Source: an uncultured Alphaproteobacteria bacterium (GTDB lineage Bacteria; Pseudomonadota; Alphaproteobacteria; RF32; CAG-239). From it: a stretch of 64,000 nucleotides of DNA. The position numbers were made by a program, and so were the translations under genes. The notes beneath the pieces were generated by a model. It saw only the letters and a program-made list of their open reading frames with translations, was not told the DNA's origin and did no database searches. The stretch covers positions 29,139 to 93,138 of the forward strand of contig CALXPL010000004.1 in assembly GCA_944390275.1 (NCBI GenBank). Direction: 5' to 3'. Positions 133 through 44,246 of this stretch are shown one piece after another (positions within the stretch are counted from its first letter, which is position 1; each line of letters starts with the position of its first letter).

Positions 133-150
133 AGCAAGGGGAAACAGACA

Positions 151-1104: not shown

Positions 1105-1195
1105 AAAATTTGTATCTAAATCTTGACAAAAGAGAGAATAAGTGGTAAAAAGACAAGCATGAATTATTCTGTAACTATAATTTGGGAAGAGTAAA

Positions 1196-2158: not shown

Positions 2159-2163
2159 GAACA

Positions 2164-2195
2164 AGCCCCTTGTAAAAGCAAGGGGTTTTTGTTTG
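2164..2195 (+). terminator. Rho-independent terminator after the TPR gene
   Basis: agccccttg-taaaag-caaggggtt hairpin followed by ttttgtttg. Confidence 0.6.
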
Positions 2196-2258
2196 ACAAT
2201 TTAAACAAAAAAGACTATAAAAAAACAAATTTTTATTATTAACGCAAAATGAATTATT

Positions 2259-3041: not shown

Positions 3042-3054
3042 GTGCAATAAAAAA

Positions 3055-3092
3055 AAGTCCATAATTTGTAAAGCAATTATGGGCTTTTTTGT
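3055..3092 (+). terminator. Rho-independent terminator
   Basis: gtccataatt-tgtaaagc-aattatgggc hairpin followed by tttttt. Confidence 0.55.
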
Positions 3093-3154
3093 TATATAAG
3101 AAAAAAGGGACATAAAAAATGTCCCAATTAGATTTAGCGTTACCGCCGTGTGGT

Positions 3155-3173
3155 TGGTCGGGATGACTGGATT
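3155..3173. repeat. 19-bp copy of the 3' end of tRNA-Pro (tggtcgggatgactggatt); att-like relic at the left edge of the islet
   Basis: Exact match to nt 5781-5799, the 3' end of the tRNA-Pro gene including CCA. Similarity stops abruptly on both sides. Confidence 0.7.
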
Positions 3174-3290
3174 GTCTTGTTCGCAATGCTCACAGCGTCG
3201 TATCGTCGTTCGGGCTTTGCCCTCATCGGCATACTTTCGTCTGCCTCTCCTCCTAGTCGCCAGCTTCCTCGCTGCTTCGAATCAAACGCT

Positions 3291-3348
3291 TCGCGGTCTT
3301 TTAAAACAAAAAAACCGCCATAAAGGCAGTTTTTTGTTTTAATGGTCG
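3291..3348. repeat. 58-bp direct repeat, copy 1 (tcgcggtcttttaaaacaaaaaaaccgccataaaggcagttttttgttttaatggtcg)
   Basis: Identical 58-mer recurs at 5728-5785, abutting and overlapping the tRNA-Pro 3' end. It contains an imperfect hairpin flanked by A- and T-runs. Confidence 0.8.
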
Positions 3349-3470
3349 TGTATAAGGTACGAAAAGAACGACCACCCTTGATATCCGCCCCCATACCCCT
3401 AAAATTTTAAGCATCCGCACCCGTGGTTTGAGATAAAATCAGGGTTGTTTTATTACAATCTTAGAAAGAC

Positions 3471-3508
3471 TTGACATATTCTGTAATAGATAATATAATA
3501 TCTATTAT
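3471..3508 (+). promoter_or_regulatory. Consensus sigma-70 promoter TTGACA-17-TATAAT for hipBA, with an overlapping palindrome ATAATA-tc-TATTAT that is a probable HipB operator
   Basis: ttgaca at 3471-3476, a 17-nt spacer, tataat at 3494-3499. The inverted repeat ataatatctattat at 3495-3508 overlaps the -10 element and lies ~65 nt upstream of hipB. Confidence 0.6.
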
Positions 3509-3571
3509 ATGTGATTTTTGTCATTTGGAGATAATATATTGTCTTTTGTTCTAAAATCAACACAAGAAGTT

Positions 3572-3838
3572 ATGCAAGAGATTGCTGCACGAGTCAAGGC
3601 CATTCGCTTGGAGCAAAATCTTTCTCAGGAAGGTTTATCTTTGCGCTCGGGTGTGAGTTTGGGTAGCTTGAAACGTTTTGAACGCACCGGCGAAATATCG
3701 TTGAAATCTCTAATCGAGATTTCCGTAAGTTTGGGCGTTATGGAAGATTTTGACAAACTGTTTGTTAAAGATACGAATATTGAAAGCCTTTTTAATAAAA
3801 AAGAACCCAAAATCCGCAAAAGAGGGAGCGTCAAATGA
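3572..3838 (+). CDS. hipB: HipB-like XRE-family helix-turn-helix antitoxin
   Basis: 88 aa from ATG 3572 (MQEIAARVKAIRLEQNLSQEGLSLRSGVS...), a Cro/C1-type HTH. The ORF track starts at TTG 3518. The stop overlaps the hipA start (ATGA). Confidence 0.7.
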   Translation: MQEIAARVKAIRLEQNLSQEGLSLRSGVSLGSLKRFERTGEISLKSLIEISVSLGVMEDFDKLFVKDTNIESLFNKKEPKIRKRGSVK

Positions 3839-5016
3839 GATTGAATGTTTATTTGAATAGCTTTGGCAAGCGTAAATATGTCGGAGTTTTGGAAGAGGTC
3901 GGGCATCGCATCTTGTTTGAATATGCACCGGAGTTTATTGCGGAAAGAATAAATATTTCTCCGTTTATGTTGCCGCTTCAATCAGGCGTGTTTGAAGACA
4001 AGAAGCAAACTTTTGACGGTCTGTACGGCTTGTTTAACGATAGTCTGCCTGATGGCTGGGGCTGTTTGCTGCTTGATCGTGCCTTGCAGAAAAAAGGTTT
4101 ATCGTTACAACAAATCACGCCGCTAAAACGTCTATCCATCATCGGTCAAAATGCAATGGGGGCTTTGGAATACGAGCCGATAACCGAACACGAGGACGAG
4201 TTTATTGGCGGAATAGAACTGGATTCTCTTTGTGCCGAAGCCAATCGTATCTTGGAAGGAGAAAGTTCGGAAGTCTTAGAAAAACTCCTAACCTTAAATG
4301 GTTCCTCCGGAGGTGCCAGACCAAAAATCGTGGCTTTGGTTTCCGAAGATAAACAAAAAATTATTCATGGTAATGTGGCCAAAGAAGATTTTTCGCCTTG
4401 GATAATTAAATTCGCCTCTTCATTAGACGGTAAGGATATAGGTGCGCAAGAATATATTTATTCGCTGATTGCCAAGCAAGCCGGCGTCGAAATGCCAGAA
4501 ACATATCTGTTTCCTTCTAAAACTTCGGTTGGACATTTCGGGGTAAAAAGATTTGATAGAAACGGAACTCAAAAAATTCATGTCCATACGGCTTGCGGAT
4601 TGCTCCATGCCAGCCACAGATACGCCAGCATTGATTATTCGGACTTGTTAAAACTGACTTTTATATTAACCAAGGATATCAGGGAAGTGGAAAAAATGGT
4701 GCGCCTGATGATTTTTAATGTTAAATCGGGAAACAAAGATGACCATAGTAAAAACTTCTCATTTTTGCTGGATGAAAATAATAATTGGAAGCTAACGCCG
4801 GCTTATGACTTAACACCTTCGGAAGGGATAAACGGCGAACAAACGGCAATGGTCAATGCAAAAGGTAAAGACATTACAACGCAAGACTTTATCAAAACCG
4901 CTGAACCTTTTGGAATTGCAGCAAAAGAGACCATGGAAATCGTGGAACGAACCGAAGATGCTTTGTCTACCTATCCTAAATACGCCAAAGAATTTGGTGT
5001 AAATAAAAAGGGATAA
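3835..5016 (+). CDS. hipA: HipA-family serine/threonine kinase toxin
   Basis: 393 aa with HipA N-terminal and C-terminal domain signatures (SSGGARPKI..., DDHSKNFSFLL catalytic motif). Translationally coupled to hipB. Confidence 0.85.
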   Translation: MRLNVYLNSFGKRKYVGVLEEVGHRILFEYAPEFIAERINISPFMLPLQSGVFEDKKQTFDGLYGLFNDSLPDGWGCLLLDRALQKKGLSLQQITPLKRLSIIGQNAMGALEYEPITEHEDEFIGGIELDSLCAEANRILEGESSEVLEKLLTLNGSSGGARPKIVALVSEDKQKIIHGNVAKEDFSPWIIKFASSLDGKDIGAQEYIYSLIAKQAGVEMPETYLFPSKTSVGHFGVKRFDRNGTQKIHVHTACGLLHASHRYASIDYSDLLKLTFILTKDIREVEKMVRLMIFNVKSGNKDDHSKNFSFLLDENNNWKLTPAYDLTPSEGINGEQTAMVNAKGKDITTQDFIKTAEPFGIAAKETMEIVERTEDALSTYPKYAKEFGVNKKG

Positions 5017-5413
5017 TGTTCAAAGATATCTTGAATGCTGAAACATCAACAGCATAAAAGCCAACAAATTTGTAAAATACATTTTATAAAAATGTAAAAA
5101 TATACAAAAGTGTAAAATGAATTTTACAAAATAATAGCAAACAAGGATACAACACTCATTAGACGAACTTTGAGTTGAATGTTGTGAAAATGTATATATA
5201 ATTAATGTTAACAACCTTGATATATTGAATTTTAAATAAGAATAATCGGTGTTTGCAAAGACTTATGGATAAAAAAATGACAACTCAAGCAGAAGAATAT
5301 ATAAAACGACTTAGAGATGAATATATTGATAATCAAAAAAGAGGCCAAGAGCGTGATTTGCTTATTCAAGAGAATAATATAGAAAAGGAACAAATAAAAG
5401 GTTAATCCCGAAA

Positions 5414-5641
5414 TTGTTGAAATTTATAGAATTACTCAAAAATTGCGGCTTTGAACTCTTCCGGAAACTCGGGCGAACGATAGAATATTGGCAGGAAGAA
5501 ATCGGGAGAATGTTTCGTTTTACAAGGAGTAACGGTATTACTGAAGGCTTCCACCGGAAAATGAAACTTATTCAACGGCGAGCGTACGGTTTTAGAAATT
5601 TTGAAAACTATCGCTTGCGTGTCCGTATTTTATGTGCTTAA
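5414..5641 (+). pseudogene. ISL3-family transposase, C-terminal remnant only
   Basis: The 75-aa ORF ...NGITEGFHRKMKLIQRRAYGFRNFENYRLRVRILCA matches the conserved C-terminus of ISL3 transposases. No N-terminal part and no inverted repeats were found. Confidence 0.6.
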
Positions 5642-5727: not shown

Positions 5728-5785
5728 TCGCGGTCTTTTAAAACAAAAAAACCGCCATAAAGGCAGTTTTTTGTTTTAATGGTCG
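5728..5785. repeat. 58-bp direct repeat, copy 2, fused to the tRNA-Pro 3' end
   Basis: Identical to 3291-3348. Its last 5 nt (ggtcg) belong to the tRNA acceptor end. Confidence 0.8.
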
Positions 5786-16558: not shown

Positions 16559-19500
16559 TTAGAACTTGTATCCCAAACCGGCATTGATGGCATAGGCATC
16601 ATCCGTTTCAATATATTTGCTGAATTCGCTGTACAAGTTGAATTGCTTGTAACGGTAGTCTAAGCGGAGGGAGAGGACTGCTCTGTCACGACGAGCATCG
16701 TAAGAGTTGACGAAATAATTGATACCGGCATCCGTCATACGAGCTTTTTGAGCTTGGAAGGGATTAGCCAGTTCATGATAATAAGTACCACCGGCACGTA
16801 AGTTAATTTTTCCTTTTTCACCGAGTTCAATTTCTTTGACAGCATACAACCCGATACCTGTTTCAACAGAAATATTATTTGTTGCATTAATTTCCAAAGC
16901 ACTGTCTTTTTCTTTAATTTTACCTTGGTACATACCCAAGACATTAAATTCAAGAGTTGGTTCAAGTCCAAACCATCCCATATCAAAAGTATGGCGAGCT
17001 TCATTGGTAATACCATAATAGTAGTTAGTAACATCACCCTCATAAGAACCACTGGTAACATGTCTCGTGTAGTCGCCGAATCCCATACCGATACGAGGAA
17101 CGGAAACGAGTTTAGAATTTCCGTATTGGAAGGATAGGGGAGCCAAAAGGTGAACCATAATTTCATCACGAGAGGCCGTGTCATCATCATAATCGCTACT
17201 ATATTTTGTTACCATAGCACCAAGACCATAACGGAAGACATCATTATATTTTTTGTCGATTAAGCCAAAAGCGGAGTGAGCTTGGTCATCATAATCAGCA
17301 ATATAAGCCGTAGCATCTTGTTTGCGACCATAGAAGTCATAACCGGCCATGACGCGAATTTCTTGGTTGTCAGAGTTATTTAAGAGAGTAGCGTTGATTT
17401 GTCTGTCAGCACTCTTGATGACATCGAAGTTTTGTTTTGTAAAGTTTGCAAACAAGTCGAGACCAAATTCACCTTTAATTTCATTAGCCAAGTCAGCATT
17501 TGTTTCGGCATATTTGAGTACATTAAAGACTTGAGAAGATTTTCCGGCTTCATAAGAGGAATCGATTTGATTGAGGAGAGCTCTGTCTTGAATTCCTGAA
17601 CTTGAAGATAAAACGGAATTCAAAGCGACTTTTCGAGCCACGATATTATAATTTTTCAAGCCATCTGTTTCAAAAGTCAAAGATTCATTATTGTTCGTAT
17701 CATCTGTTAGTGTTTCATCGTTTGTTTGAGAAGAAGTTTCTTCGGCATTATCGCTAGGAATCGTAATGTCAGATAAATCGACATCATCTTGGCTTTCTTG
17801 AACAGAGACATCACTGAACCAAGCCGTACCTTTGACTTTAAGATTAGAGATATCGGAAGCGGTTAAAGCATTTTTCAAGACATATTCAGATTGATTACCT
17901 TCATCAAGAGCAGAACCGTCAACGCTTAAATTTCCATCCATGGTTGAGGCAATGAACCGACCATTTTCACCGACATAGACGCCGCTATCATTAAAGGACA
18001 TCGGAGCAGCCATGAGGGACATGGTAACTGGCGCACTATAACTTGTTATTGAGGGCGTTGTTGCAGAAGCAACGGTTCCTTGGTTTAAGATAGAACTTGT
18101 TGAATCAATAGAAAAGATATTGCTTGTTCCGTTATTTCCGGCTGTAGTACCGGAAAATAGAATAGTTCCTTGGTTATCAATTTTAGAGTTATTTGTTGCT
18201 TTCATACCAACAACTTCAGAACCTTTCACATAGATATTACTGGTATTGGTAATAGTACTTGAATTATTAGCTTGCATACCGACAATTTTATTACCGGTAA
18301 CAGATAAAGTACCGCCATTAACTCCGGTTGCTCTATTTTCAACCAAAATACCGATGGTAGAATCACCTTCAACCGTTAAAGCACCATTATTTGTTACTTG
18401 TCCGCCTTTAGCAGCATGCATACCGATAGATCCGGTACCTTTAACGGTCATGCTTGCACCACCGGCATTTGTGAGTTGTCCTCCGGAATTTGAAATCATA
18501 CCCACCGAAGCATTACCGGTAACATTAATTTCAGTTTCATTAGTAGCGGATCCTGTATTAATGCTGATACCGGTACCGGATGCGCTGGTAACCGTAATTG
18601 ATCCTTTATTAAAGACAGAGCCACCTGCGATTTCAATACCTGTTCCGCTAGCACCCGACGCAGTAACTGTAATAGTACCGCTATTTGTAACACTGACGGT
18701 ACCGGTTTCGCCTAAGATACCGGTTGTATTACTTTCACCGTTCATGGTAATTGTACCCCCATCATTTTTGAGAGTACCTGATTGAGCATAAAGACCGGCA
18801 GCATCCGAACCATTGAGTGTAATATTACCGGAGTTTGTACCGCTACCGGAAACGACATGAATAGCGTGGAAACCATTATTATTATTCGTAATATCACCAA
18901 GGTTTTTAGCAACACCGTTTTTAACATAAAGAGCAGAGGAGCCGATAGTGTTAATTGTCGCACCGGAAGAGTTAACGATAGTACCACCGTTATCGGCATA
19001 CATCGCATAAGAGTTAGCATTCTGAACATCCAAAATTCCGTTATTCGTAGCGGTACCGGCACCATTAGCGAGCATAGCATAAGCATTTGCTCCACTAACA
19101 CTGATATTTCCGGAAGTTTCGTTAGTAGCGGTACCGGTTCCTTGAATGACCATACCCGCAGCATTATCACCGGTTAAGCTAATAGTTTTGTTATTAGTGA
19201 TAGTACCTTGAACGACGCGCATAGCATGGATACCTTCTTGAGCCAAAGAGATAACCCCGTTATTTATACCGGTACCGGAGTTGACAAGCATAGCGACTTC
19301 GCCGATAGATTGGAGAGAAGCTCCGTCTTCATTAATGATAGTACCTCCGTCAGCTTGCATAGCAACTGCCGTTGCATTATTAGCGATAATCTTTCCATAG
19401 TTAGAAGCCGTACCGCTCGTAGCTTTCATACCGATAGAGTTAGCACCGTTAACAATAATGACGCTGTTTTCGAGAGCATTTGAAGCCGTAGCAGAACCAT

Positions 19501-22500
19501 TTGTTTCCATACCGATAGAATTTTCACCGTTAAGAGTAATACGACCTTGGTTTTCGATACTACCGGCTTCCACGTACATAGCTTTGAAATTACCATTATC
19601 GTTTTCAATAATACCTTCGTTGACGCCTTGTCCGTTGAGAACATACATACCAATGGAACCATCGGTAATTAACTGTCCGGTAGAGGAGTTTTTAATAATA
19701 CCGCCATCGGCATACATAGCCACAGAAGTAGCATCGTTTACTTGAATTGTTCCGCTGTTAATAGCGGTACCTTGAGTTTGGCTATTACCAAGGATTACGC
19801 CGAGAGCGACCATACCTTGAGAGTTTGGACCGTTGACGGTAATAACGCCGTCTAATTCATTGGTAACGGTAGAATTACCGCCGGCTTCCATACCGATAGA
19901 AGAATCACCGCTTGTTGTAATATTAGCATTATTTGTAAGTTGAGCATCGCCTTCACCTTGCATAGCAATAGAATTTGCTCCAGAAACATTGATGATTTTA
20001 TTATTGATAGCGGTACCGGAACGAGCATACATAGCAATAATGCCTTCTTTCGTAAAGGAAAGAGTTCCTTGGTTTTCAGCATTACCGGAATTGACATACA
20101 TGGCATAAATGCTGTTGTTTCCATCGGAGATGGTAATTGTTCCGTTTAGACCATTAACAATTGTTCCGCCATCTGCATACATACCATAAGAATCATCAGC
20201 ATTGATAGTAATATTTTTATTATTTGTTGCCGTTCCTTGAGTTGCTTGCATACCATAAGATTCATCACCGGTAACATCAATATCTCCGCTGTTATCGATA
20301 GTTCCGGAACCATCAGCAATCATACCGGAAGAGCCAGTACTCATAACATTAATAGTTCCTTTGTTACGAGCTTGACCGCTACCGGTAACTTTCATACCGA
20401 TAGATCCGGTAGAGGAGGCTTCTAAATTGATCGTACCTTCATTAAGAGCACCGATAATACTTGTACTTGACGTACCGCCATCTTGAGTTTGGATACCAAC
20501 AGAATTTTGTCCTTGGATAGTAACGGTAGCATTTGTTTTATTGATAATATCGGCAGAAACGCTGTGCATACCGATAGAGCTGTCAGCAGCCATTGTTATT
20601 GAATTATTGTTAGTGCCGCTTCCGTCGGTTGTAAAAATACCATAAGAGTTTTCACCGTCAACAGAGATAGTTCCATCATTCCAAGCCGTAGCCGCACCAA
20701 GCATTTGCATACCGTAAGAATTATCACCGGTAATAGTAATGGTAGCCCCTTGATGGTTAATTGTGGCGGCGGTTTCTTTGTCGCTAGCACCGGAGCCATT
20801 ACCGCCGATACCGACACCGCCGTAGTTAAGGATAATTTGGCTATAGTTATCAAGAGTACCACCCGTTCCTAAATTCATACCATAACCAAACATATCATTA
20901 AGAGTAATAATACCGTAGTTTTTCGCTTCACCTTCATCAAGATACATACCGTAGGCAATATTTTCCGTCGTAGGATATTGACGTCCGGTAATTGTAATAT
21001 TTCCGTTGTTTGTCATACGACTATAAACACCGGTAGAGCCATACATACCATAATTAAGTTTTCCGTTATGATCTGAACTCATAATAATGTCTTTATTATT
21101 AATAATTTGAGCATTTTCGGCAGTAACACTCATACCGATAGAATTGTAACCGGTAACATTGATAGTTCCGTCATTAACGGCATAGTTTTGAGATTCCATA
21201 CCAGTTGACATAGAACCTGTAATATTAATTTGTCCTTGGTTTGAGGCTTGTCCGAGACCGGATTTCATACCGACACCGGTATCATCAATGGTAATAACAC
21301 CGGAACCATAGTTAATAGCATTTCCGCTTGATGTTGACATACCGACACCGCCGGCTTGCATATTAATTTGTCCGTAGTTTTGGTTTAATCCGGATTCGGT
21401 ATGCATACCATTACCGCGTTTAGTAAAGACGATAGATGAGTTTTGGCTGTTAAGGATGTTGGCTTCATTACCCCAAATACCGAAAGAACCGGTATCGACA
21501 TCAATACCTTGAGATAAATCGCCCGTGGTATTAATGTAGAGATTAGCATTATTAATAACACTTCCTTTTTCAGCTTTAATACCATAAGAAGTTTTATTTT
21601 GAGCTTGTTGGGAGTTATTCAAAGTAATATCGGCATTATTTGTTACAATACCATTTTCTGTAGAAATACCATATTGTTCATTAGCATTGTTAATGGTAAT
21701 TGTTTGATTATTAGTGATAGAGCCGACACCGCCTTTAAGACCATAAGCAAGGTTAGACAAAGAGCCGGTATTTCCGTTAATGGTAATGGCAGCATCATTA
21801 ATAATGTTACCAGCGAGGGCTTCGATGGCATAAGCTTCATTTTTATTTGAAATAGTAATTTCAGCGTTATTGTCAACATCGCCTTGAGTTGACTTAATAG
21901 CATAGGCTTTATCATCAAGAGCCCCGGTGGTATTTCCCATAGTAATTGTAGCATTGTTGACAATGTAACCGTTTTCGGTAGAAAGACCATAGCTTTCTTT
22001 AGCATTATTGATAACAATAGCAGCATTATTGTTGATGTCGGTAACGCCGCCTTTAATACCATAAGCGATGGTAGAAGTGATATTGTTGTTATTTTGGTTA
22101 ATAGATATAGTACCGGTATTATTAACGGTACCAGCGAGGGCTTCAATAGCATAAGCCTCGCTTTTATAATCAATATTAATATTTCCGGAGTTCTCAACAT
22201 CACCTTGAGTTGATTTAATGGCATAGGCTTTTGTATCAAGAGCACCATTGTTGTTACTTAAAGTGATATTTGCCGTGTTAGAAATATCACCGTTTTCCGT
22301 AGAAATAGCGTAAGATTCCGTAGCATTATTAATTGTAATAGCCGCATCATTGGAAATATTGCTGTTTCCGCCCTTAATACCATAAGCCAATTTTGATGTG
22401 AGGCTAGTATTTTGGTTAATAGAGATAGTTCCGGTATTATCAACATTTCCGGCAAGAGCTTCAATGGCATAGGTTTCATCTTTGTTAGAGATAGAGATAG

Positions 22501-25198
22501 AAGCAGAGTTATTGACATCACCTTGAGTTGATTTAATAGCATAGGCTTTTGTATCAAGAGCACCATTATTGTTACTTAAAGTGATGTTTGCCGTGTTAGA
22601 AATATCACCGTTTTCTGTCGAAATGGCATAAGATTCCGTAGCATTATTAATGGTAATATTTCCGCTATTAATAATATCACTGTTACCGCCTTTAATGCCA
22701 TAAGCCAAAGCAGAAGTTAAATTTGTTGAAGGATTAATAGAGATAGTTGCAGAATTGTTGACGGTACCGGCGAGGGCTTCAATACCATAAGCATTGTTTT
22801 TGTTAGAAATGGTAAGAGCCGCATTATTTGTAACATCACCTTGAGTTGATTTGATGGCATAGGCTTCGTTATCTAAAGCACCTTTAGAGTTAGTTAAAGA
22901 AATTTGACCATTATTAAGAATAGTACCGTTTTCAATAACGATTCCGTAACTATTGTAGTTATTTGTAATGGAAAGAGTATTATTATTGTTAAGAGTTCCT
23001 TTATTAGCTTTAATAGCAAAAGCAGTTGTTCCGTTGGCACTTGTATTGTTGGTAATTGTAATGGTTCCGTTGTTGTTTACGGTTCCGTCTTCAAGATAGA
23101 TACCGATTGTTTCCGCCGAATTAGAATCGGTAGAACTGTCATCACCGGTAGAGCTATCACCGCTGCTTCCAGAAGAAGAAACATCATTAGTCAAAGCATT
23201 ATCAATAGTGATGCTACTGTTATTATTCGTATTGATAGTACCTTTTTGAGACATACGAATACCGGTTCCGCCGCCTTGAATAGTAATTTCATTATTATTT
23301 TCAATACCGCCGGTATCATGTAAGATTCCGGTACCTTGTTGTTGCAAAGTAATTGTACCATTGTTGATAGACAAACCACCGTTATAAGAAGCGATACCAA
23401 AACCGTTTTTGCTATCAATAGCAATAGTTCCGTTATTTGTCATACTGGGATTATCCTGATCGATTTCAGGATTTTTACCATCGCCGCGCACGGCAATCAT
23501 ACCGTAAGAACCGATACCGCCATCAATACTGATGTATTTATCATTTATAAGAACTCCGTTTCGAATAGAGAACATTCCGGCAACACTTTCGGTAACAGTA
23601 TTGTCTTCACTACCGGTATCAGTAATAGACACTTGGATAGTACCGGAGTTGGTAGCAGTAGTATTTCCATCGGCACGGATACCGATAATACCGCTTAAAC
23701 CTTGAAGGAACATATTATTTCCGTCGCTATCGGTTGCGGAATAAGTACCGTTATCACCGGTTAAAGCGACATCGAGAGCAATATTTCCGTTATTATTAAT
23801 AACAACGTTTCCGGCACGAGAGAAGAGGTAGGAGCCATTTAGAAAAGAGTCTTCGACATAGCTTCCCATACCGACAAGACCTGTACTGATTTCGCGATTA
23901 TCGGCACTTGCGCTAAAAGAAATATTACCGTTATTGGTAAGAGTAGTAGTTGAGAAAGTACCTTTTTCTTGATTAATGATTTGCCCGCGCATACCAATCA
24001 TGGAACCGGCGATACTATCGGCAGATTTTGCCGTACCGGAAATAGTTCCGTTATTGATTATGGTTGAATTAGTATCGGCATACATACCGACAATAGAGTG
24101 ATTATCTTTATCTCCATGGAAAGACATAGAGATAAGGCCGTTTGCATGGTTGGTAGCCGTAGAGCTTTGGCTTGCAATCATAGCCAAGGTACCGTTTTTA
24201 GCATCAATTTTGATAGTATCGTAATTATTTGCGGTACTATTTTTCAAGGCAACCAAAGCAGCCGTATTATCTTTAAGGGTAATAAGGTAATTTTTGCTGG
24301 CATCATAACGAGAAGAGTCGGGACTATAACCGTTATTGACGGTTGAGCGATTGACCCCGCGCATAGCGACTTGAATGTATTGGCTGTAATCGAGAGCACT
24401 ATAACGAAAATCAATTAAATCTGTTAGAGGTTGAGAGGTAGCCCCATCATCTCCGGAAACTTTAATAGAAGAGTTGTTGCTGATAACCCACCCCTCAAGT
24501 TTACCATCTCCGAAGTTATAATCAGGGAAGGCGCCATTAGTTAAAGAACCGCCGAGTTGTTCATCAAGAATAACGCGATTATAATTTGAAGTTTCGGGGG
24601 AGCTGGGAGTCGCTGTACCGACAGTTCCACCCAAGCTGTAGTCGGTTTCATTATAAGAGAGCGGAAAGAAGAAATCGTTTCCACCGCCACCGCCGCCGCC
24701 CATGACGGCAACGAGAATACCACCGAGCAGGATAGCTCCGCCGATAAGCCAAGCAGTTGGTGAGAGCAGATAATCTTCTTCGCCGAGATAAGCATAGGCT
24801 TCACGAGAATTTGCGGTAGTAGGAACCACACGTCTTGATTGCATAAAGGAGTCGCGATTTCTGGCCATAAGGTTTTGCATACAAGGGTGATTCGGATTTG
24901 CACCGGCAGCGCGTAAAGTATTGTAGGCAGTATAATTTCTTTGTTTTATCGCATGACAAAGAGCCGTATTTCCGTTACGATCGAGGGTATCAATATTCAA
25001 GCCGCGTTGGATAGCGGCACGCAAAGCGCGTACATTTCCCATAGTAGCAAGAGTGTACATTTGCGCGTTACTGATAGGGGGAAGATAGGCAAGTGCGGGA
25101 GAACAGATAGATAAAACGAAACCTATTGCCATAAGGGCAATAAGTTTGTTTTGTTTAAAAAAGTTCAACATCCGCATATTAAAATTAAGCCAATACAA
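16559..25198 (-). CDS. Giant type Va autotransporter (2,879 aa): signal peptide, ankyrin-like N-terminal module, hydrophobic segment plus Gly run, Asn/Thr/Gly-rich beta-helical passenger with tandem repeats, C-terminal beta-barrel translocator
   Basis: Signal peptide MRMLNFFKQNKLIALMAIGFVLSICSPALA. GNTALCHAIKQRNYTAYNTLRAAGANPN is an ankyrin repeat. The passenger contains hundreds of NNGTI/GxGI pectate-lyase-like repeats. The last ~300 aa form an autotransporter beta-domain ending ...AINAGLGYKF. Confidence 0.85.
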   Translation of the reverse strand: MYWLNFNMRMLNFFKQNKLIALMAIGFVLSICSPALAYLPPISNAQMYTLATMGNVRALRAAIQRGLNIDTLDRNGNTALCHAIKQRNYTAYNTLRAAGANPNHPCMQNLMARNRDSFMQSRRVVPTTANSREAYAYLGEEDYLLSPTAWLIGGAILLGGILVAVMGGGGGGGNDFFFPLSYNETDYSLGGTVGTATPSSPETSNYNRVILDEQLGGSLTNGAFPDYNFGDGKLEGWVISNNSSIKVSGDDGATSQPLTDLIDFRYSALDYSQYIQVAMRGVNRSTVNNGYSPDSSRYDASKNYLITLKDNTAALVALKNSTANNYDTIKIDAKNGTLAMIASQSSTATNHANGLISMSFHGDKDNHSIVGMYADTNSTIINNGTISGTAKSADSIAGSMIGMRGQIINQEKGTFSTTTLTNNGNISFSASADNREISTGLVGMGSYVEDSFLNGSYLFSRAGNVVINNNGNIALDVALTGDNGTYSATDSDGNNMFLQGLSGIIGIRADGNTTATNSGTIQVSITDTGSEDNTVTESVAGMFSIRNGVLINDKYISIDGGIGSYGMIAVRGDGKNPEIDQDNPSMTNNGTIAIDSKNGFGIASYNGGLSINNGTITLQQQGTGILHDTGGIENNNEITIQGGGTGIRMSQKGTINTNNNSSITIDNALTNDVSSSGSSGDSSTGDDSSTDSNSAETIGIYLEDGTVNNNGTITITNNTSANGTTAFAIKANKGTLNNNNTLSITNNYNSYGIVIENGTILNNGQISLTNSKGALDNEAYAIKSTQGDVTNNAALTISNKNNAYGIEALAGTVNNSATISINPSTNLTSALAYGIKGGNSDIINSGNITINNATESYAISTENGDISNTANITLSNNNGALDTKAYAIKSTQGDVNNSASISISNKDETYAIEALAGNVDNTGTISINQNTSLTSKLAYGIKGGNSNISNDAAITINNATESYAISTENGDISNTANITLSNNNGALDTKAYAIKSTQGDVENSGNINIDYKSEAYAIEALAGTVNNTGTISINQNNNNITSTIAYGIKGGVTDINNNAAIVINNAKESYGLSTENGYIVNNATITMGNTTGALDDKAYAIKSTQGDVDNNAEITISNKNEAYAIEALAGNIINDAAITINGNTGSLSNLAYGLKGGVGSITNNQTITINNANEQYGISTENGIVTNNADITLNNSQQAQNKTSYGIKAEKGSVINNANLYINTTGDLSQGIDVDTGSFGIWGNEANILNSQNSSIVFTKRGNGMHTESGLNQNYGQINMQAGGVGMSTSSGNAINYGSGVITIDDTGVGMKSGLGQASNQGQINITGSMSTGMESQNYAVNDGTINVTGYNSIGMSVTAENAQIINNKDIIMSSDHNGKLNYGMYGSTGVYSRMTNNGNITITGRQYPTTENIAYGMYLDEGEAKNYGIITLNDMFGYGMNLGTGGTLDNYSQIILNYGGVGIGGNGSGASDKETAATINHQGATITITGDNSYGMQMLGAATAWNDGTISVDGENSYGIFTTDGSGTNNNSITMAADSSIGMHSVSADIINKTNATVTIQGQNSVGIQTQDGGTSSTSIIGALNEGTINLEASSTGSIGMKVTGSGQARNKGTINVMSTGSSGMIADGSGTIDNSGDIDVTGDESYGMQATQGTATNNKNITINADDSYGMYADGGTIVNGLNGTITISDGNNSIYAMYVNSGNAENQGTLSFTKEGIIAMYARSGTAINNKIINVSGANSIAMQGEGDAQLTNNANITTSGDSSIGMEAGGNSTVTNELDGVITVNGPNSQGMVALGVILGNSQTQGTAINSGTIQVNDATSVAMYADGGIIKNSSTGQLITDGSIGMYVLNGQGVNEGIIENDNGNFKAMYVEAGSIENQGRITLNGENSIGMETNGSATASNALENSVIIVNGANSIGMKATSGTASNYGKIIANNATAVAMQADGGTIINEDGASLQSIGEVAMLVNSGTGINNGVISLAQEGIHAMRVVQGTITNNKTISLTGDNAAGMVIQGTGTATNETSGNISVSGANAYAMLANGAGTATNNGILDVQNANSYAMYADNGGTIVNSSGATINTIGSSALYVKNGVAKNLGDITNNNNGFHAIHVVSGSGTNSGNITLNGSDAAGLYAQSGTLKNDGGTITMNGESNTTGILGETGTVSVTNSGTITVTASGASGTGIEIAGGSVFNKGSITVTSASGTGISINTGSATNETEINVTGNASVGMISNSGGQLTNAGGASMTVKGTGSIGMHAAKGGQVTNNGALTVEGDSTIGILVENRATGVNGGTLSVTGNKIVGMQANNSSTITNTSNIYVKGSEVVGMKATNNSKIDNQGTILFSGTTAGNNGTSNIFSIDSTSSILNQGTVASATTPSITSYSAPVTMSLMAAPMSFNDSGVYVGENGRFIASTMDGNLSVDGSALDEGNQSEYVLKNALTASDISNLKVKGTAWFSDVSVQESQDDVDLSDITIPSDNAEETSSQTNDETLTDDTNNNESLTFETDGLKNYNIVARKVALNSVLSSSSGIQDRALLNQIDSSYEAGKSSQVFNVLKYAETNADLANEIKGEFGLDLFANFTKQNFDVIKSADRQINATLLNNSDNQEIRVMAGYDFYGRKQDATAYIADYDDQAHSAFGLIDKKYNDVFRYGLGAMVTKYSSDYDDDTASRDEIMVHLLAPLSFQYGNSKLVSVPRIGMGFGDYTRHVTSGSYEGDVTNYYYGITNEARHTFDMGWFGLEPTLEFNVLGMYQGKIKEKDSALEINATNNISVETGIGLYAVKEIELGEKGKINLRAGGTYYHELANPFQAQKARMTDAGINYFVNSYDARRDRAVLSLRLDYRYKQFNLYSEFSKYIETDDAYAINAGLGYKF
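21600..23030 (-). repeat. In-frame tandem array of ~4.5 copies of a 318-bp (106-aa) unit inside the autotransporter passenger
   Basis: Protein residues ~773-1200 repeat GALDxKAYAIKSTQGDV...ITINNATESYAISTENGDISNTANITLSNNN. Alternate-frame ORFs 21643-22248 and 22258-22566 begin with the identical peptide MVLLIQKPM...LNQLKVM, which shows near-identical DNA copies offset by 318 nt. Confidence 0.8.
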
Positions 25199-33866: not shown

Positions 33867-33964
33867 ATAAAGAAGTAGAATTAGCCCTCTTGACAATAAG
33901 AAAAGAGGGCTAAGAAAATATAAGGAATAAAGTGTAAAAACATTAATGATTAAACGCAGACTTT

Positions 33965-34780
33965 TTAAATTTTCATAACGGGACGAGTACGAACAGACGA
34001 AGTTTTTTGCTCTTGTAGAAAAACAGAGGACAAGGGAGAAAATATACCTGACGCATTCAAGTTAGTACCACTGACTGTAAAAAATGAGGATTCATGAGCC
34101 TCATTTGATGAGGCATAAGTATAATTACTGACTATCATGAATCCATGAAACCAGAAAAATTTTAAACCATATCTATAGATATTAAACCAAATAGCATTAG
34201 AGGGAATACACCATTTCCCTTTTGTTTGAGGAGCAGACTGTGGGGCATAATTTTTCACAACTTGCGCAAGAGGGTACTTATCAGCTCCGCGTGCCAACAT
34301 AGCATCAGTATCTTCACAACTTGTATTCGAAAGTATAGATTCGAGAGTTCCATCATATGAGGTACTATATATTTCTTCACCATCGGTAAAACCGGTTCCG
34401 ATTTCCGGTATATCGACAAGTTCCGTTGACCAGACACCGCTGACACTAGCGTTAGACATAACCCATTTATCGCCATTGGGGTCAATATAAACGACATTCC
34501 CCAAATGAGTTTTATTCTTATCTCTTTTGAGCGAACACGTTCCATCGCTGTAATAAAGAGAACCCATGATACAGTCTTGATTATTATTCCCTTGAGAATT
34601 ATTTTCGCTTTTACAAGCCCATGTATTGCCAAACGGACATTTGATACCGCCATTTTCACAAGAAGTTTCGGTGTAACCTAAAGTAGCGCAATCTTGCGTC
34701 GCAACGCATTGTGCCGAAACATTGCCCATAGCAAAAGGAGCCGTTAATAAAACCGAAGTCAATAAAGTAAATTTTCTCAT
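33965..34780 (-). CDS. Cysteine-rich secreted protein, short form type A (signal peptide + one EGF-like Cys module + ~190-aa C-terminal domain). Family member 1b
   Basis: Signal peptide MRKFTLLTSVLLTAPFAMGNVSA|QC, then the QDCATLGYTETSCENGGIKCPFGNTWAC module. C-terminal region homologous to 42732-43484 (...NYAPQSAPQTKGKWCIPS...RPVMKI). aggag RBS. 14 nt downstream of the long-form gene. Confidence 0.6.
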   Translation of the reverse strand: MRKFTLLTSVLLTAPFAMGNVSAQCVATQDCATLGYTETSCENGGIKCPFGNTWACKSENNSQGNNNQDCIMGSLYYSDGTCSLKRDKNKTHLGNVVYIDPNGDKWVMSNASVSGVWSTELVDIPEIGTGFTDGEEIYSTSYDGTLESILSNTSCEDTDAMLARGADKYPLAQVVKNYAPQSAPQTKGKWCIPSNAIWFNIYRYGLKFFWFHGFMIVSNYTYASSNEAHESSFFTVSGTNLNASGIFSPLSSVFLQEQKTSSVRTRPVMKI

Positions 34781-34794
34781 TTCTTTTCTCCTTT

Positions 34795-35823
34795 CTAATC
34801 GAGGCAATAAACATAATTGGTATTGAACGGACATTTTACGGATTTTCCCTCACAGCTTTGTTGGGCATAACCCAAAACGGAACAATCTTGGCTTAGCGTA
34901 CAGAAATCAAAGCCGGGACAAACACAAGCTCCTTGTGAAGCGTTCCATGTAAAACCACTCGCACATTTACATTTTGAATATTTGTTGTCGCAAGAATTCC
35001 CATCTCCTCCCGAATACCCCGTGCCGGAGCAAGAATATTTGAAAGAAGTGGCGCAAACGCATTTCTTTTGGGTATCACTCCATTCATAATTATTGGGGCA
35101 GTTGCATTTTTGATAATAAGTTCCGCTATCATCGGAACAGGTACTTCCGCTTCCGCCTTGTGTTCCACAGGTTGGGGCTGAAACATATTTTTGCGGGTCG
35201 CATTTGATTTTATATTTTTTACCATCACATGATTGACATTCGCCATTGCTCACATACCCCGACGGAATAGAGGTATATTGATAATCAGAACAGAGATTAC
35301 AACATTCTTTATATTTACCGCCGCAAGAAGTTCCGACACCTTGTTCGCCGAGAGCCGTATCACAAACTTGATTATATTCGGAAGAACATTCACAATCGGA
35401 ATGATAAGAACTGTCATAAGGGCAATAAGAGGTAGGGGAGCTTCCATCGGGACAAGGCGTGTTGGTATAACCAGCTTGTTTACAAAGTTCCTCAGGAGTG
35501 CCGTGGTCATCGGGATTTCCTCCGCCGCCTCCACCGTCAGGAGTTTCCGTATTACCGAATTTATCCGCTCCACAATTTCCCGCATCGGTTATAAAACACA
35601 CCGAAGCAATTTGCACACCGTTATTTGTTCTTTTCGCAAAAAGCTGTGATGATAAGTCAAGTCCGTGAAGAGTATGGCGTATGTATGTGTGATGTATGTG
35701 TAAAGTGGGAATGCCAGACTTGAGGAGTGAAGAATCATCCTCAAAAGACGCATAAGTTACATTTCCGCTGTCAACAAATAAGCTGACGGCAGACAACAAG
35801 AGTACTTTTGAAAATTGTTTCAT
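34795..35823 (-). CDS. Cysteine-rich secreted protein, long form (multi-module EGF-like). Family member 1a
   Basis: Start taken at MKQFSKVLLLSAVSLFVDSGNVTYA (aaggagga RBS). The ORF track extends upstream to 35964. ~40 Cys in conserved spacing (VCFITDAGNC...GKYKECCNLC...CNCPNNYEW...CKCASG...CPFNTNYVYCLD). ~80% identical to 62504-63487. Confidence 0.6.
   Translation of the reverse strand: MKQFSKVLLLSAVSLFVDSGNVTYASFEDDSSLLKSGIPTLHIHHTYIRHTLHGLDLSSQLFAKRTNNGVQIASVCFITDAGNCGADKFGNTETPDGGGGGGNPDDHGTPEELCKQAGYTNTPCPDGSSPTSYCPYDSSYHSDCECSSEYNQVCDTALGEQGVGTSCGGKYKECCNLCSDYQYTSIPSGYVSNGECQSCDGKKYKIKCDPQKYVSAPTCGTQGGSGSTCSDDSGTYYQKCNCPNNYEWSDTQKKCVCATSFKYSCSGTGYSGGDGNSCDNKYSKCKCASGFTWNASQGACVCPGFDFCTLSQDCSVLGYAQQSCEGKSVKCPFNTNYVYCLD
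34930..35322. repeat. ~400-bp near-identical segment shared, in inverted orientation, with 62951-63356 (the central parts of the two long Cys-rich genes)
   Basis: Identical protein runs (YTSIPSGYVSNGECQSC.GKKYKIKCDPQKYVSA; CGTQGGSGSTCSDDSGTYYQKCNCPNNYEWSDTQKKCVC). Identical out-of-frame peptides too (VEHKAEAEVPVPMIAELIIKNATAPII in ORFs 34893-35246 and 63096-63374), which requires nucleotide identity. Confidence 0.7.
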
Positions 35824-35853
35824 CACATCCTCCTTGCTTATCATCACGACTCT

Positions 35854-35882
35854 AATATAACATATTTGTTGCAAAGTGTAAA
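35854..35882 (-). promoter_or_regulatory. Putative promoter TTTACA-17-TATATT for Cys-rich cassette 1 (minus strand)
   Basis: On the minus strand: tttaca, 17-nt spacer, tatatt, ending ~30 nt upstream of the ATG. The leader carries gtgatgataag + ggagg, a motif also present in front of 41113. Confidence 0.35.
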
Positions 35883-35953
35883 TACATAATTTTGATAAAG
35901 AAGGAGAAAAAAGACATAAAAAAGACTTGTAAAAAAAAGAAAAATAAAATAAG

Positions 35954-40967: not shown

Positions 40968-41112
40968 AAAAAAAATCGCAACTATGAAATTCAAAACACG
41001 AGTATATCAGTAGGCTACGTCAATTTTTTTATTAAAAAAATAAATTAACCCTTGTACATAGCATAAAATTGTGATAAAGTAAAAAATGTGATGATAAGTG
41101 TGGAGGGATACT

Positions 41113-42717
41113 ATGACTGGTATTGCAAGAGTGATTCTGTGTACAGTTTCAGGACTTATGTGTTTTGAGACTAATTTAGCATATTCATTAACAAAAAATA
41201 CAGCGTCAAGCGTCCCGAGATTAGGGTTTCATACACAATACACACACAAATTTTTACCTAACGATACCGACTTATCATCACCATTATTTGATGTAAGACC
41301 GATAACGGGAGAAGGCTCTGGAGAAAGTTCCGGACGCGAATATAAAGAAGCAAATGTTTGTTTTATTACAGACACGGAAGATTGCTCTCATGATAAATTC
41401 GGAAATAATGAAACTCCGGGTAAGCCGAATGATCCCGGTTATGGCGATCCGGATGATTTATGTAAGGCTGCAGGATATAATAATCCTGTCTGTGGAGATG
41501 GAATGCAGCCTGGAGATTTTTGCCCTTACGATGAGTCATATTACAAAAGATGTGTTTGTTCATCAATATACGGTAAGACATGTGATGCAGAAGATGATTT
41601 AAGAGGGGTCGGAGCATCGTGTGATGGGAAGTATAAAGAATGTTGCAATATTTGCACGGGATATGATTATTTAAAAATTCCTAATGACTATGTCAGTAAT
41701 GGAGAATGTGATTCTTGCGACGGCAAGAAATACAAAATCAAGTGTGATCCGACAAAATTTTTAATTAACGTAGATTGTGGTCCTCAAGGAGGTATGGGGA
41801 GAGCCTGTACGGATGATGACGGTATTCATTATGAAAACTGTAACTGTCCGAATAAATATGTCTGGAGCAGTGTCTCACATAAATGTGTCTGTGCGGATGT
41901 TTACAAATACAGTTGCCAAGGGACGGGTTATGCCGGAGGAGACGGAGAGTCATGTGATGAAAAATACATGAAATGTAAATGTTCGGAAGGATATCGTTGG
42001 GATACGACCCAAGGAGCCTGTGTCTGTGATGGAGAAGACTGGTGCTCGCTTAATCAAGATTGTTCATCCTTGGGCTATAAGCGAGAAACTTGTAAAACGC
42101 AAGCCATAAAATGTCCTTTTGATACGGCGTATGTTCATTGTGTCAAAGCAAGTTGTGCTTTAGGAGATATTTTGAATAATGATATGACTTGCAGTAAGAC
42201 AACAGAAGCAGGCAAAACGCCGATAGGTGTTGTCGTTTATGTTGGTGAGGACGGTAAAAGACAAGCCGTAGCCTTAGAAGAACTACCGAAAGTTTCTTGG
42301 GGAGTTTCCAGTAAAATTAAAACAAGCGTGCTTCCGGAGTTAACATACGAAGAAGCGATGAGTGATTTAGATAGCTGTGGCAATACACTGAGATTGGTTT
42401 ATGCTTCACAGCAAAATGGCGGAGGCGTTTATCCGGCAGCGGAAGCAGCTTACAACTATGCACCGGCGGCAGCTCCGGAGACAAAAGGACAATGGTGCTT
42501 ACCCTCATTCAATATAGTGAACCGAATTGATGATGATATAAAAGTACAGAAGACCATATCTGATTTAGGGATAAAAATGCAATATTTTCGCTATTGGTCA
42601 TCGTCAGCGGCAGAAAAAGGTCAATATGCACCATACTATCAAGCATGGCAGCTTTCGAGCTATGGCGGCGATACTATTGGTGAGCTTGAAAATGTAAGAC
42701 CGGTAATTGAATTTTAG
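41113..42717 (+). CDS. Cysteine-rich secreted protein, long form fused to the type-A C-terminal domain. Family member 2a
   Basis: Start MTGIARVILCTVSGLMCFETNLAYS (ggaggg RBS). The Cys-module region (VCFITDTEDC...GKYKECCNIC...CNCPNKYVW...CKCSEGYRW...CPFDTAYVHC) is followed by a ~190-aa domain homologous to the short type-A proteins (GKTPIGVVVYV...AAYNYAPAAAPETKGQWCLPS...RPVIEF). Confidence 0.6.
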   Translation: MTGIARVILCTVSGLMCFETNLAYSLTKNTASSVPRLGFHTQYTHKFLPNDTDLSSPLFDVRPITGEGSGESSGREYKEANVCFITDTEDCSHDKFGNNETPGKPNDPGYGDPDDLCKAAGYNNPVCGDGMQPGDFCPYDESYYKRCVCSSIYGKTCDAEDDLRGVGASCDGKYKECCNICTGYDYLKIPNDYVSNGECDSCDGKKYKIKCDPTKFLINVDCGPQGGMGRACTDDDGIHYENCNCPNKYVWSSVSHKCVCADVYKYSCQGTGYAGGDGESCDEKYMKCKCSEGYRWDTTQGACVCDGEDWCSLNQDCSSLGYKRETCKTQAIKCPFDTAYVHCVKASCALGDILNNDMTCSKTTEAGKTPIGVVVYVGEDGKRQAVALEELPKVSWGVSSKIKTSVLPELTYEEAMSDLDSCGNTLRLVYASQQNGGGVYPAAEAAYNYAPAAAPETKGQWCLPSFNIVNRIDDDIKVQKTISDLGIKMQYFRYWSSSAAEKGQYAPYYQAWQLSSYGGDTIGELENVRPVIEF

Positions 42718-42731
42718 AGAAGGAGAGAGAG

Positions 42732-43484
42732 ATGAAAAAAATAATGTTCTTAAGCAGTTTTACCCTTATGTCTCTCTTTCTGGGAGAAAGCAAGGTGTTA
42801 GCGCAATGTGCAAATGTCAATTTTGATTGTCGGGCTGCGGGTTATACGCAAACCTCATGTCCGTCGGGCGGAGTAAGATGTCCTACGGATAACAGCTTAT
42901 GGTACTGTCCGCAAAACACGGCATTTTGTGAAGTCGGCTATATCTTAAATAGTGATATGAGTTGTACAAAAAACAAAGTAAGCGGAAAGACCCCGATTGC
43001 AGTTGTTGCCTATCTTGATGGTAAGGGAGGAGGACAGGCAATCAGTCTGGAAGATTTACCGGCTCAAGTAATGATGGCATCGGGAGTAACAATACCGGAT
43101 AGTTATGAAGAAACTAGTTTTGCGATGACAGGTGTAAAGAGTTGTGAAAAAACACAGCTTTTAATAAATTCGGGAGATAAAAGTAAATTTCCGGCAGCCT
43201 GGGCAGCTTATGAATATGCGCCGGCAGCGGCTCCCAATACAAAAGGAAAATGGTGTATTCCGGATGTTGGTGTCTTGTTTTATGCAAGAAGAGCATACGC
43301 AGCGGAGATAGATGCAGCAATAAAAAATTTGAATGCAGAAGAATTTACGGATTACTACTGGACAACATCTTTAACCGAAAAAAGAGGGATGTATTCATTT
43401 CATTTTGTGAAAGACGACGGTATAACGACAAGCTATGGATATTATGATAGAAATTATAAAATTCGTCCGGTTATAGAATTTTAG
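42732..43484 (+). CDS. Cysteine-rich secreted protein, short form type A. Family member 2b
   Basis: Signal peptide MKKIMFLSSFTLMSLFLGESKVLA|QC, the module CRAAGYTQTSCPSGGVRCPTDNSLWYCP, then the conserved C-terminal domain ending RPVIEF. 14 nt after the upstream gene. Confidence 0.6.
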   Translation: MKKIMFLSSFTLMSLFLGESKVLAQCANVNFDCRAAGYTQTSCPSGGVRCPTDNSLWYCPQNTAFCEVGYILNSDMSCTKNKVSGKTPIAVVAYLDGKGGGQAISLEDLPAQVMMASGVTIPDSYEETSFAMTGVKSCEKTQLLINSGDKSKFPAAWAAYEYAPAAAPNTKGKWCIPDVGVLFYARRAYAAEIDAAIKNLNAEEFTDYYWTTSLTEKRGMYSFHFVKDDGITTSYGYYDRNYKIRPVIEF

Positions 43485-43496
43485 GGGAGAAAGAAC

Positions 43497-44246
43497 ATGA
43501 AAAAAACAAATATTTTTTTATTAAGCAGTGTCCTAATATGTTCTCCGTTAATTTTCAGCGCGAATACTTACGGTCAACAATGTGTCATTTCTGATTGTGC
43601 TTATTTAGGATATACCGAAACGAGTGATAAGGGCGGATGTTTAAAATGTCCATTCGGTGATTATTGGTTTTGTCCGGCAGCAGACAGAGAAAATTGTGAT
43701 TCAATGTATGCCTTTCCTTGTAATCGTAGTAATGAATATACACCTTCAGGATCATATAGTGAGAGTTGTAACGGAAGATATAAGAGATGTGGTTGTCGAA
43801 ATAATTCAGATTGGCTTGCAGGTTGGTTATCTTGCGATTGTGATACAAATTCATATAAATATACCTGTACCGGAACACATGAAGTTCCTCCATATACATC
43901 AGATCAGTGTGATGGTAAATATTCTTATTGTGCGTGTGATGATGAACGTTATGGGTGGTCAAAACGAACAGGAACTTGTTCTCTCAAAGGAACATTAGAA
44001 TACTTTATAGTAAAAGCAGAATGTTTTGAAGCAGCAAGCTATATTAGAGCCATGGGGACAACAAGTCAAAGACGCTGTAGCGTTTGTCCCTCGAATGTAA
44101 CAAGCTTTACGACGGAGTTACTGATGAAAAATTTTACTTCAGGTACTGATGAACAAAATATGCGTGATTGTATTAACTATGTTGATAGTTATCAATCCAC
44201 ATGGTATGAGTACGGAAGTTGTTTCTATGATGACAGTTGTAAATAA
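43497..44246 (+). CDS. Cysteine-rich secreted protein, short form type B (all Cys modules). Family member 2c
   Basis: Signal peptide MKKTNIFLLSSVLICSPLIFSANTYG|QQC, then ISDCAYLGYTETSDKGGCLKCPFGDYWFCP and the YKYTCTGT...GKYSYCAC modules. 12 nt after the upstream gene. Confidence 0.6.
   Translation: MKKTNIFLLSSVLICSPLIFSANTYGQQCVISDCAYLGYTETSDKGGCLKCPFGDYWFCPAADRENCDSMYAFPCNRSNEYTPSGSYSESCNGRYKRCGCRNNSDWLAGWLSCDCDTNSYKYTCTGTHEVPPYTSDQCDGKYSYCACDDERYGWSKRTGTCSLKGTLEYFIVKAECFEAASYIRAMGTTSQRRCSVCPSNVTSFTTELLMKNFTSGTDEQNMRDCINYVDSYQSTWYEYGSCFYDDSCK

Follow-up and report, generated by a model that had tools for sequence, protein, structure and literature searches.

Evidence for short-tract gene conversion in a dispersed family of cysteine-rich gene cassettes of an uncultured alphaproteobacterium

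Background

Among inverted paralogs of bacterial chromosomes, one of the closest described systems is tufA/tufB of Salmonella enterica (Abdulkarim and Hughes 1996). The two Salmonella tuf genes undergo concerted evolution by gene conversion (Paulsson et al. 2017, PMC5485169), and in S. enterica the inversion between them arises readily, carries an 8% growth-rate cost, and has not been observed among natural isolates (Brandis et al. 2019, PMC6735719). In Helicobacter pylori, the bab paralogs make chimeras by conversion (PMC4552749). The subject here is a pair of inverted cysteine-rich genes, A and B (Table 1), in a window of 64,000 nucleotides (nt) of an uncultured Alphaproteobacteria bacterium (the whole stretch of DNA analysed; contig CALXPL010000004.1 of assembly GCA_944390275.1, positions 29,139 to 93,138). 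In the explanation proposed, A and B would be members of a family of dispersed two-gene cassettes, each a long secreted disulfide-rich gene followed by a short partner, and the cassettes would trade short stretches by gene conversion, in the form of non-reciprocal homologous recombination. On this reading, gene A is pieced together from segments: over its 3' third it equals a third copy, D, except for an island of 90 to 110 nt identical to B. That family-wide gene conversion made both this mosaic and the patches that separate near-clonal strains is given a probability of roughly 0.85.

Like tufA and tufB, A and B are inverted paralogs on one chromosome in which continuous tracts may have been exchanged non-reciprocally, and their homology is a potential substrate for inversion. 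For tuf the inversion itself has been demonstrated and is selected against in nature; inversion between A and B was not seen. The tuf genes are near-identical as a whole and their homology ends at the gene borders, whereas A and B are approximately 80% identical with 83 to 110 nt of real identity, so that 83 nt of perfect homology in surroundings of 85 to 88% identity stands against a whole near-identical gene. The homology of A and B, unlike that of tuf, also enters the partner gene, and four or more members of the family are involved. The family resembles babA/babB/babC and other outer-membrane-protein paralogs of H. pylori in having exported paralogs at several loci that form chimeras by intragenomic conversion, in having genotypes that differ among close isolates, and in having cassettes that are present or absent at given loci; but the Bab proteins are characterised outer-membrane adhesins for which conversion alters binding, with phase variation, whereas the patches found here are mostly silent. 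With pilE/pilS of Neisseria, vlsE of Borrelia and msp2 of Anaplasma the family has in common the copying of short segments among dispersed cassettes for exported proteins. Those systems, however, possess one expression site with promoterless partial donors, and the variation that they generate in defined variable regions is mainly of amino acids, whereas in the present family all copies are complete genes and most of the changes are synonymous.

Results and discussion

Extent of the identity between A and B

A first-pass annotation of the window had described near-identical inverted repeats of about 400 bp inside A and B. The two genes are indeed inverted homologs by blastn, with arms (Table 1) that align at 80.5% identity over 988 columns, of which a repeat finder delimited 640 nt at 83% identity (34707-35346 and 62936-63575). 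This homology extends beyond the stop codons, through a 14-nt spacer containing a ribosome-binding site and then through about 50 codons of the partner genes A2 and B2, and the repeated unit is thus a two-gene cassette. Near-identity, however, is much shorter than had been described: inside 34930-35322 (393 nt) the two genes are only 88.3% identical, the longest perfect run is just 83 nt (35169-35087, matching 63113-63195), and with one mismatch allowed the run reaches 110 nt. The identical out-of-frame peptides offered as proof of long identity do exist (VEHKAEAEVPVPMIAELIIKNATAPII is in both lists of open reading frames (ORFs)), but they span just the 83-nt run.

Table 1. Positions of the family genes, their shared segments and the variable patches

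Feature	Position (window unless stated)	Strand	Description	Basis
D cassette	about 4.4-6.2 kb left of window start (L036 3669-5473; L035 10001-11805)	same strand as A	D 329 aa, D2 266 aa	
Gene A2	33965-34780	minus	271-aa partner, 14 nt 3' of A; first ~50 codons in repeated unit	
A-side inverted-repeat arm	34634-35613	minus	~980 nt, 80.5% identity to B arm	blastn and repeat finder
A 3' end, spacer and A2 start matching D/D2	34761-34998	minus	238 nt, 100% identity	
Gene A	34795-35823	minus	342 aa, 32 Cys, signal-peptide-like N-terminus	ORF list; same gene call in source contig
B-type tract in gene A	35060-35169	minus	110 nt, one mismatch to B; 83-nt perfect run 35087-35169	
A segment matching D	35161-35316	minus	156 nt, 100% identity	
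Variable patches, 5' half of A	35458-35770	minus	ONAT22-1 scaffold_219 (9) and BRZ_DG (8)	
Segment that would flip	35954-62370	mostly plus	26.4-kb gene block; 27.6 kb between repeat arms	
C cassette	41098-44246	plus	long member C 41098-42717, short family genes 42732-43484 and 43497-44246	
Gene B	62504-63487	plus	327 aa, 33 Cys; inverted paralog of A, 71% protein identity	
B-side inverted-repeat arm	62677-63648	plus		blastn and repeat finder
Variable patches in B	62840-62974	plus	12 in ONAT22-1 scaffold_219, 4 in BRZ_EI	
Counterpart tract in gene B	63113-63222	plus		sequence alignment
Gene B2	63502-64000	plus	partner of B, truncated by window end; full length 221 aa (L016 12440-13105)	
B3	beyond window, after B2		short family gene, 188 aa (L016 13134-13700)	

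When mismatches were shuffled in 20,000 rounds, the longest runs obtained were 59 nt (perfect) and 80 nt (one mismatch), and no round (0/20,000) reached 83 or 110 nt. The divergence of A and B is mosaic rather than uniform, as had been suggested initially: synonymous divergence (pS) along the pair drops from about 0.5 to 0.05 in the tract. Within the tract pS is 0.053 (one synonymous difference in 36 codons) and nonsynonymous divergence (pN) is 0, compared with pS of 0.50-0.51 and pN of 0.06-0.07 in the 94 flanking codons within 34930-35322 (Fisher p = 3e-4 for the synonymous contrast).

The tract covers the part of the protein that is conserved best, including invariant Cys, P243 and near-invariant W248, and together with a pN of 0 this would suit an identical core kept without any exchange, by very strong constraint acting either at the protein level or on a nucleotide-level element that overlaps it. 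The neighbouring codons, however, are nearly as conserved at the protein level and yet have a pS of about 0.5, so that protein-level constraint cannot account for the identity of the tract. In D and in the family member on contig L043, 24-39% of the positions in the tract are unlike B (61-76% identity), with frame or motif kept, and A jumps abruptly from 100% D-type to 99% B-type sequence and back. The pS contrast, the sites compared across three paralogs, and the divergence of D and L043 in practice refute constraint, which is left with hardly any probability. Most of the 400-bp similarity is best read from the codon comparison as purifying selection on an old duplicate, with only about 100 nt that would need recombination.

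The mosaic of gene A

The system is not one of two copies: this genome has at least four long family members (D, A, C and B). D was found via P0005, a relative of A from public assemblies, the first 5,623 nt of whose contig match window positions 1-5623 at 100%; by coordinate arithmetic, the source contig reaches 16 kb further left of the window. The D sequence was taken from L035/L038, which are near-clonal contigs with 100% identical flanks. Relatives of A fetched from public assemblies bear a different core peptide.

On both sides of the tract, A is perfectly identical to D over the segments listed in Table 1, and below 34761 the identity to D/D2 is at least 87% (mostly at least 92%) as far as about 34610. 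Inside 35160-35071, the three-way alignment gives 99% B-type and approximately 76% D-type identity. These are the limits of the minimal B-type tract, each end of which lies in 9-11 nt common to A, B and D. Informative sites that group A with D and A with B are in the ratio 23:0 in 35170-35322, 1:26 in 35060-35169, and 93:6 in 34640-35059 (Fisher p = 3e-22), or 116:6 for both flanks pooled. On this alignment, D-type and B-type sequence alternate along gene A, which is thus a mosaic. Three independent assemblies (L001/L027, L025 and L028) give an identical core of A, and four reproduce B, which rules out misassembly or chimeric assembly as the source of the mosaic.

The flanks of A and B do differ, as had been noted, but those of A are identical to D and are not a matter of simple drift after duplication. 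Gene conversion between paralogs, which had also been proposed, is supported by the drop in pS, by the incongruence introduced by the third paralog, and by the near-clonal patches described below, but the tract converted between A and B would be about 90-110 nt and not about 400.

One D-type site (T) stands alone within the B-type tract of A, at position 35086, where every B-type copy seen except that of L034 has C; the donor may differ from the present-day B, or mismatch repair may have left a patch. A and D are direct repeats approximately 40 kb apart that have perfect runs of 156 and 238 nt in common, and are thus a better substrate for recombination than the pair A-B.

Differences between near-clonal strains

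The comparison took in contigs of other samples that, apart from the differences below, match the contig of the window exactly; its pairwise total is approximately 96 kb. ONAT22-1 scaffold_219 differs from the window contig at 21 positions in 54,080 nt, 9 in A (35458-35725) and 12 in B (62840-62956), and differs from ONAT22-1 scaffold_2369 at 20 positions in 15,684 nt, all of them in D and 19 within 127 nt. There are 9 differences between BRZ_DG and the window in 9,408 nt (8 in A, at 35664-35770, and 1 in C), none between BRZ_DV and the window in 9,621 nt, and 1, in parC, between one Logan contig and the window in 7,046 nt. The long family genes hold 50 of the 51 differences (A, 9 + 8; B, 12; D, 20; C, 1), the parC difference being the remainder, and no clustered patch was seen in these comparisons in approximately 90 kb of single-copy DNA.

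Templates are evident for two of the patches. The D allele of ONAT22-1 scaffold_2369 equals A at 150 of 151 nt, and the BRZ_DG allele of A equals the family member on L013 at all 151 of 151 nt. A is unchanged in both of the strains that are separated by the D patch, and D alone differs, a pattern that, with the ancestral states that we infer, fits non-reciprocal transfer. Among the 44 affected codons, 34 changes are synonymous and 10 alter an amino acid, as expected from the copying of an already selected homologous template and the opposite of what untemplated hypermutation would give.

That near-clonal variation lies almost wholly in one secreted-protein family, of which dispersed copies have a common upstream region of approximately 115 nt, would also suit a dedicated diversification machine, whether a diversity-generating retroelement, a site-specific invertase or shufflon, or silent-cassette variation of the pilin type. 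The substitutions, however, are a mixture of C/T, G/A, T/C, A/G and G/C that is not adenine-specific, the synonymous excess is as given above, and all copies are full-length with start codons and leader peptides, rather than promoterless silent cassettes. No reverse transcriptase, invertase or integrase is among the Pfam labels around A, B and D or of the window ORFs tested. Retroelement, invertase and hypermutation were rejected in view of the substitution spectrum, the synonymous excess, and the lack of such enzymes among the annotated neighbours, and a dedicated machine of any kind is considered very improbable.

Several points weigh against gene conversion as the source of the mosaic and the patches. 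The identity of the partners prior to conversion would have been only 75-88%, a low value for RecA-dependent exchange when mismatch repair is active. The exchange is known from sequence comparison and was not watched as an event, and D is known from near-clonal contigs with identical flanks, not from the window's own contig. The polarity of the island is complicated by L014, which carries the positional ortholog of A in BRZ_FA and is 98.4% identical to the window across 10.9 kb of common flank: its B-type tract is longer, from about 35179 to about 34900, and contains the island of the window. The island may be either the product of a short B-to-A conversion into a D-like gene, or what remains of an older and longer B-type region, both flanks of which have recently been replaced through exchange with D. 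The second history is mildly favoured, since A and D match perfectly in the flanks and the island has one mismatch. Both histories amount to gene conversion. A RecA-type mechanism is presumed, as is the direction of transfer.

Finally, no donor was found among the sequences compared for the ONAT22-1 patches in A or B, and these patches may be imports from other strains rather than copies of a paralog in the same cell. Import from other strains of the species, through DNA uptake and ordinary homologous recombination, could be extended to the patches in general: L013, the template of the BRZ_DG patch, is from a different sample, and family alleles are highly diverse across metagenomes. However, the patches are 6-15% divergent, compared with 1-2% divergence of the flanks in co-occurring strains (BRZ_EI and BRZ_FA); virtually all near-clonal differences are in paralogous genes, and the single-copy DNA is without clustered patches; and paralogs of the same lineage are available as donors for two tracts (B for the core of A, and A for the patch in D). 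Import as the general explanation is therefore regarded as unlikely, and gene conversion among the cassettes is preferred.

Orientation of the segment between A and B

The first-pass annotation had further proposed that recombination between the inverted copies would flip the segment of approximately 27.6 kb carrying kdsA through hflX, and that such variants could be present in populations. By Pfam labels, the block 35954-62370 contains a 260-aa gene, kdsA, recO, parC, the C cassette, proS, lpx genes, adhE, hfq, and hflX. A crossover within the common tract would be the means of inversion: the inverted copies have 83 perfect nt in common, longer than the minimal processing segment of approximately 25-30 nt for RecBCD/RecA recombination in Escherichia coli, and a crossover in this run would keep both chimeric genes in frame. 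Many assemblies break within A or B, among them BRZ_DV NODE_1635, which begins at 35120 in the common core and finishes in B2, and synteny of BRZ_FA with the window stops inside the A cassette. By analogy, up to half of the recombination events between tufA and tufB of Salmonella produce inversions (PMC6735719).

Nevertheless, every contig that spans a junction is parental, although consensus assemblies are blind to rare isoforms. On the hflX side, the order B-B2-B3 is found in L015, L016 and L017, with a full B in L002; on the pyrG side, the order A2-A-260aa-kdsA is found in L025 and L027. The window contig and ONAT22-1 scaffold_219 hold both copies in the orientation of the window, and BRZ_EI NODE_966 has the same orientation over both junction sites (pyrG/kdsA and hflX-B), though without A-A2. 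A degenerate 155-nt pattern, designed to fit recombinant as well as parental combinations, matched parental junctions only, at the expected places, in 8 fetched loci; the same pattern had 0 matches in Joint Genome Institute (JGI) metagenomes, in which the organism is not represented. Any repeat beyond the assembler k-mer is expected to break contigs.

The GC skew of the segment (+0.184) is as in its flanks (+0.152 and +0.162), and the plus strand carries 91% of its coding bases (22.8 kb plus, 2.2 kb minus). The matching skew and the strand bias indicate that the present orientation is old and that the segment has spent no appreciable time inverted. Given this bias, the inverted form would place approximately 17 genes head-on to replication, including parC, proS, the lpx genes, adhE, and hfq-hflX, and inversion between A and B would probably be costly. 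The coexistence of both orientations in populations is accordingly judged improbable, and what is left of the proposal is that an 83-nt inverted repeat could in principle recombine; it is a possible but weak substrate for inversion.

Several sequences that resemble products of inversion were rejected. In L014 (BRZ_FA), the cassette is followed by a Na/H exchanger and an ion channel, and not by the genes that follow B2 here (B3, GT2, DUF2155 and MlaD). No other fetched locus has these downstream genes of BRZ_FA, and the only contig of the close cluster that a search for exchanger homologs retrieved was 1.8 kb long. P0002/L013 combines an A-type 5' half with a B-type 3' half and a B2-type partner, but adjoins a Mur-ligase gene; P0004/L034 is placed in a porin/adk/gyrB region; and P0013/L043, with a D-type core bearing a 23-nt deletion, adjoins a metallo-beta-lactamase gene. 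L013, L034 and L043, despite the appearance of A/B chimeras, sit at other loci and are further cassette loci of the mosaic family.

The protein family and its other loci

The protein encoded by gene A belongs to no Pfam or NCBIfam family. Its AlphaFold2 (AF2) model has a pLDDT of about 90 for residues 105-342. A2 has an N-terminal module, CxxxQDCxxLGYxxxxCxxxxxKCPF, that is like the C-terminal module of A, and gene C has the same C-terminal module as A with a partner-like C-terminal extension; gene C is thus a fused version of the pair A + A2. No repeat of 40 nt or more involves the C cassette, and no long identical run is common to it and A or B. The lengths of C2 and C3 vary among strains.

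In precomputed annotation, some long family members carry PF07603 (Lcl_C, DUF1566). The partner protein of L014 (244 aa) aligns with positions 5-114 of the 117 of this profile at 23.1 bits, under the cut-off of 34.9 bits, and the profile has no match in A, B, C, A2, D2 or C2 even at E = 10. The Cys-rich part that holds the repeat is covered by no model and has no relative of solved fold.

A, B, C and D are each a complete ORF with a start codon and a leader peptide. Upstream of the start, a region of about 115 nt (window 35811-35923) is 90-95% conserved in A, in D and in several relatives at unrelated loci, but not upstream of B. The corresponding regions are those of L013, L014 (two copies), L035/L036, and L043, and this is possibly a common promoter or 5' leader of the cassette. 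In the 2668 region of L043, an A-type 5' half is joined to a D-type core and the gene is split into ORFs of 239, 64 and 114 aa; this family member is probably a pseudogene.

The cassettes vary in presence and in surroundings. BRZ_EI (L026 11670-12837, in place of window ~33870-35900) is without the A-A2 cassette, with flanks that are 98-99% identical; at this site it has an unrelated 251-aa gene, with a 71-nt copy of the 3' end of pyrG at the right border. BRZ_FA (L014 10897-16640) is collinear with window 45820-34936 at 98.4%, and its synteny ends near 34936. Past this point, the A-like gene is longer and has an additional Cys module, its partner is a different one, and the exchanger and channel genes mentioned above follow; a second family gene in BRZ_FA is inverted and encodes 596 aa, with an A-like 5' end and upstream region. 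BRZ_DV NODE_1635 (L017/L046, 28,702 nt) extends as a whole from 35120 to the conserved start of B2, and many other contigs terminate within A, B or D, the cassettes acting as assembly breakpoints. From the synteny break in BRZ_FA and the loss of A-A2 in BRZ_EI, the cassettes are sites of structural change.

Other features of the window

A perfect 58-nt direct repeat (3291-3348 and 5728-5785), hairpin-like and followed by a T-run, flanks helix-turn-helix (HTH)/HipA toxin-antitoxin genes. This region varies between otherwise identical strains, one of which has an ISL3 transposase fragment nearby (L039). A giant gene of 2,879 aa on the minus strand (16559-25198), labelled BigA_3rd, contains four tandem copies of approximately 318 nt (21769-23025) at 65-82% identity, and cancels the GC skew locally.

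Conclusions

The process proposed here is ordinary conversion between paralogs, a known process, in an uncharacterised disulfide-rich family of uncultured Alphaproteobacteria. Paralog gene conversion itself is a textbook phenomenon, of which this family is a clean natural metagenomic example across samples. The case also gives reason for caution, in that a short identical core in inverted paralogs is no evidence for an invertible segment. The more interesting by-product is that conversion patches would explain nearly all differences between near-clonal genomes. Because these genomes differ almost only by the patches of one family, such families can dominate apparent strain-level single-nucleotide polymorphism signals, and they can break assemblies.

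It is conceivable, though doubtful, that the cassettes are a genuine variation system, with a new family of modular, secreted and disulfide-rich proteins in dispersed copies that are expressed, in which short-tract conversion would be the fastest mutational process of the genome, kept for varying an exposed surface. If so, the surface would be varied for recognition of host, phage or neighbours, and larger rearrangements would start from the cassettes too, among them the synteny break of BRZ_FA and the loss of A-A2 in BRZ_EI. At the least, these observations draw attention to a multi-copy, fast-changing family of secreted Cys-rich proteins in uncultured Alphaproteobacteria.

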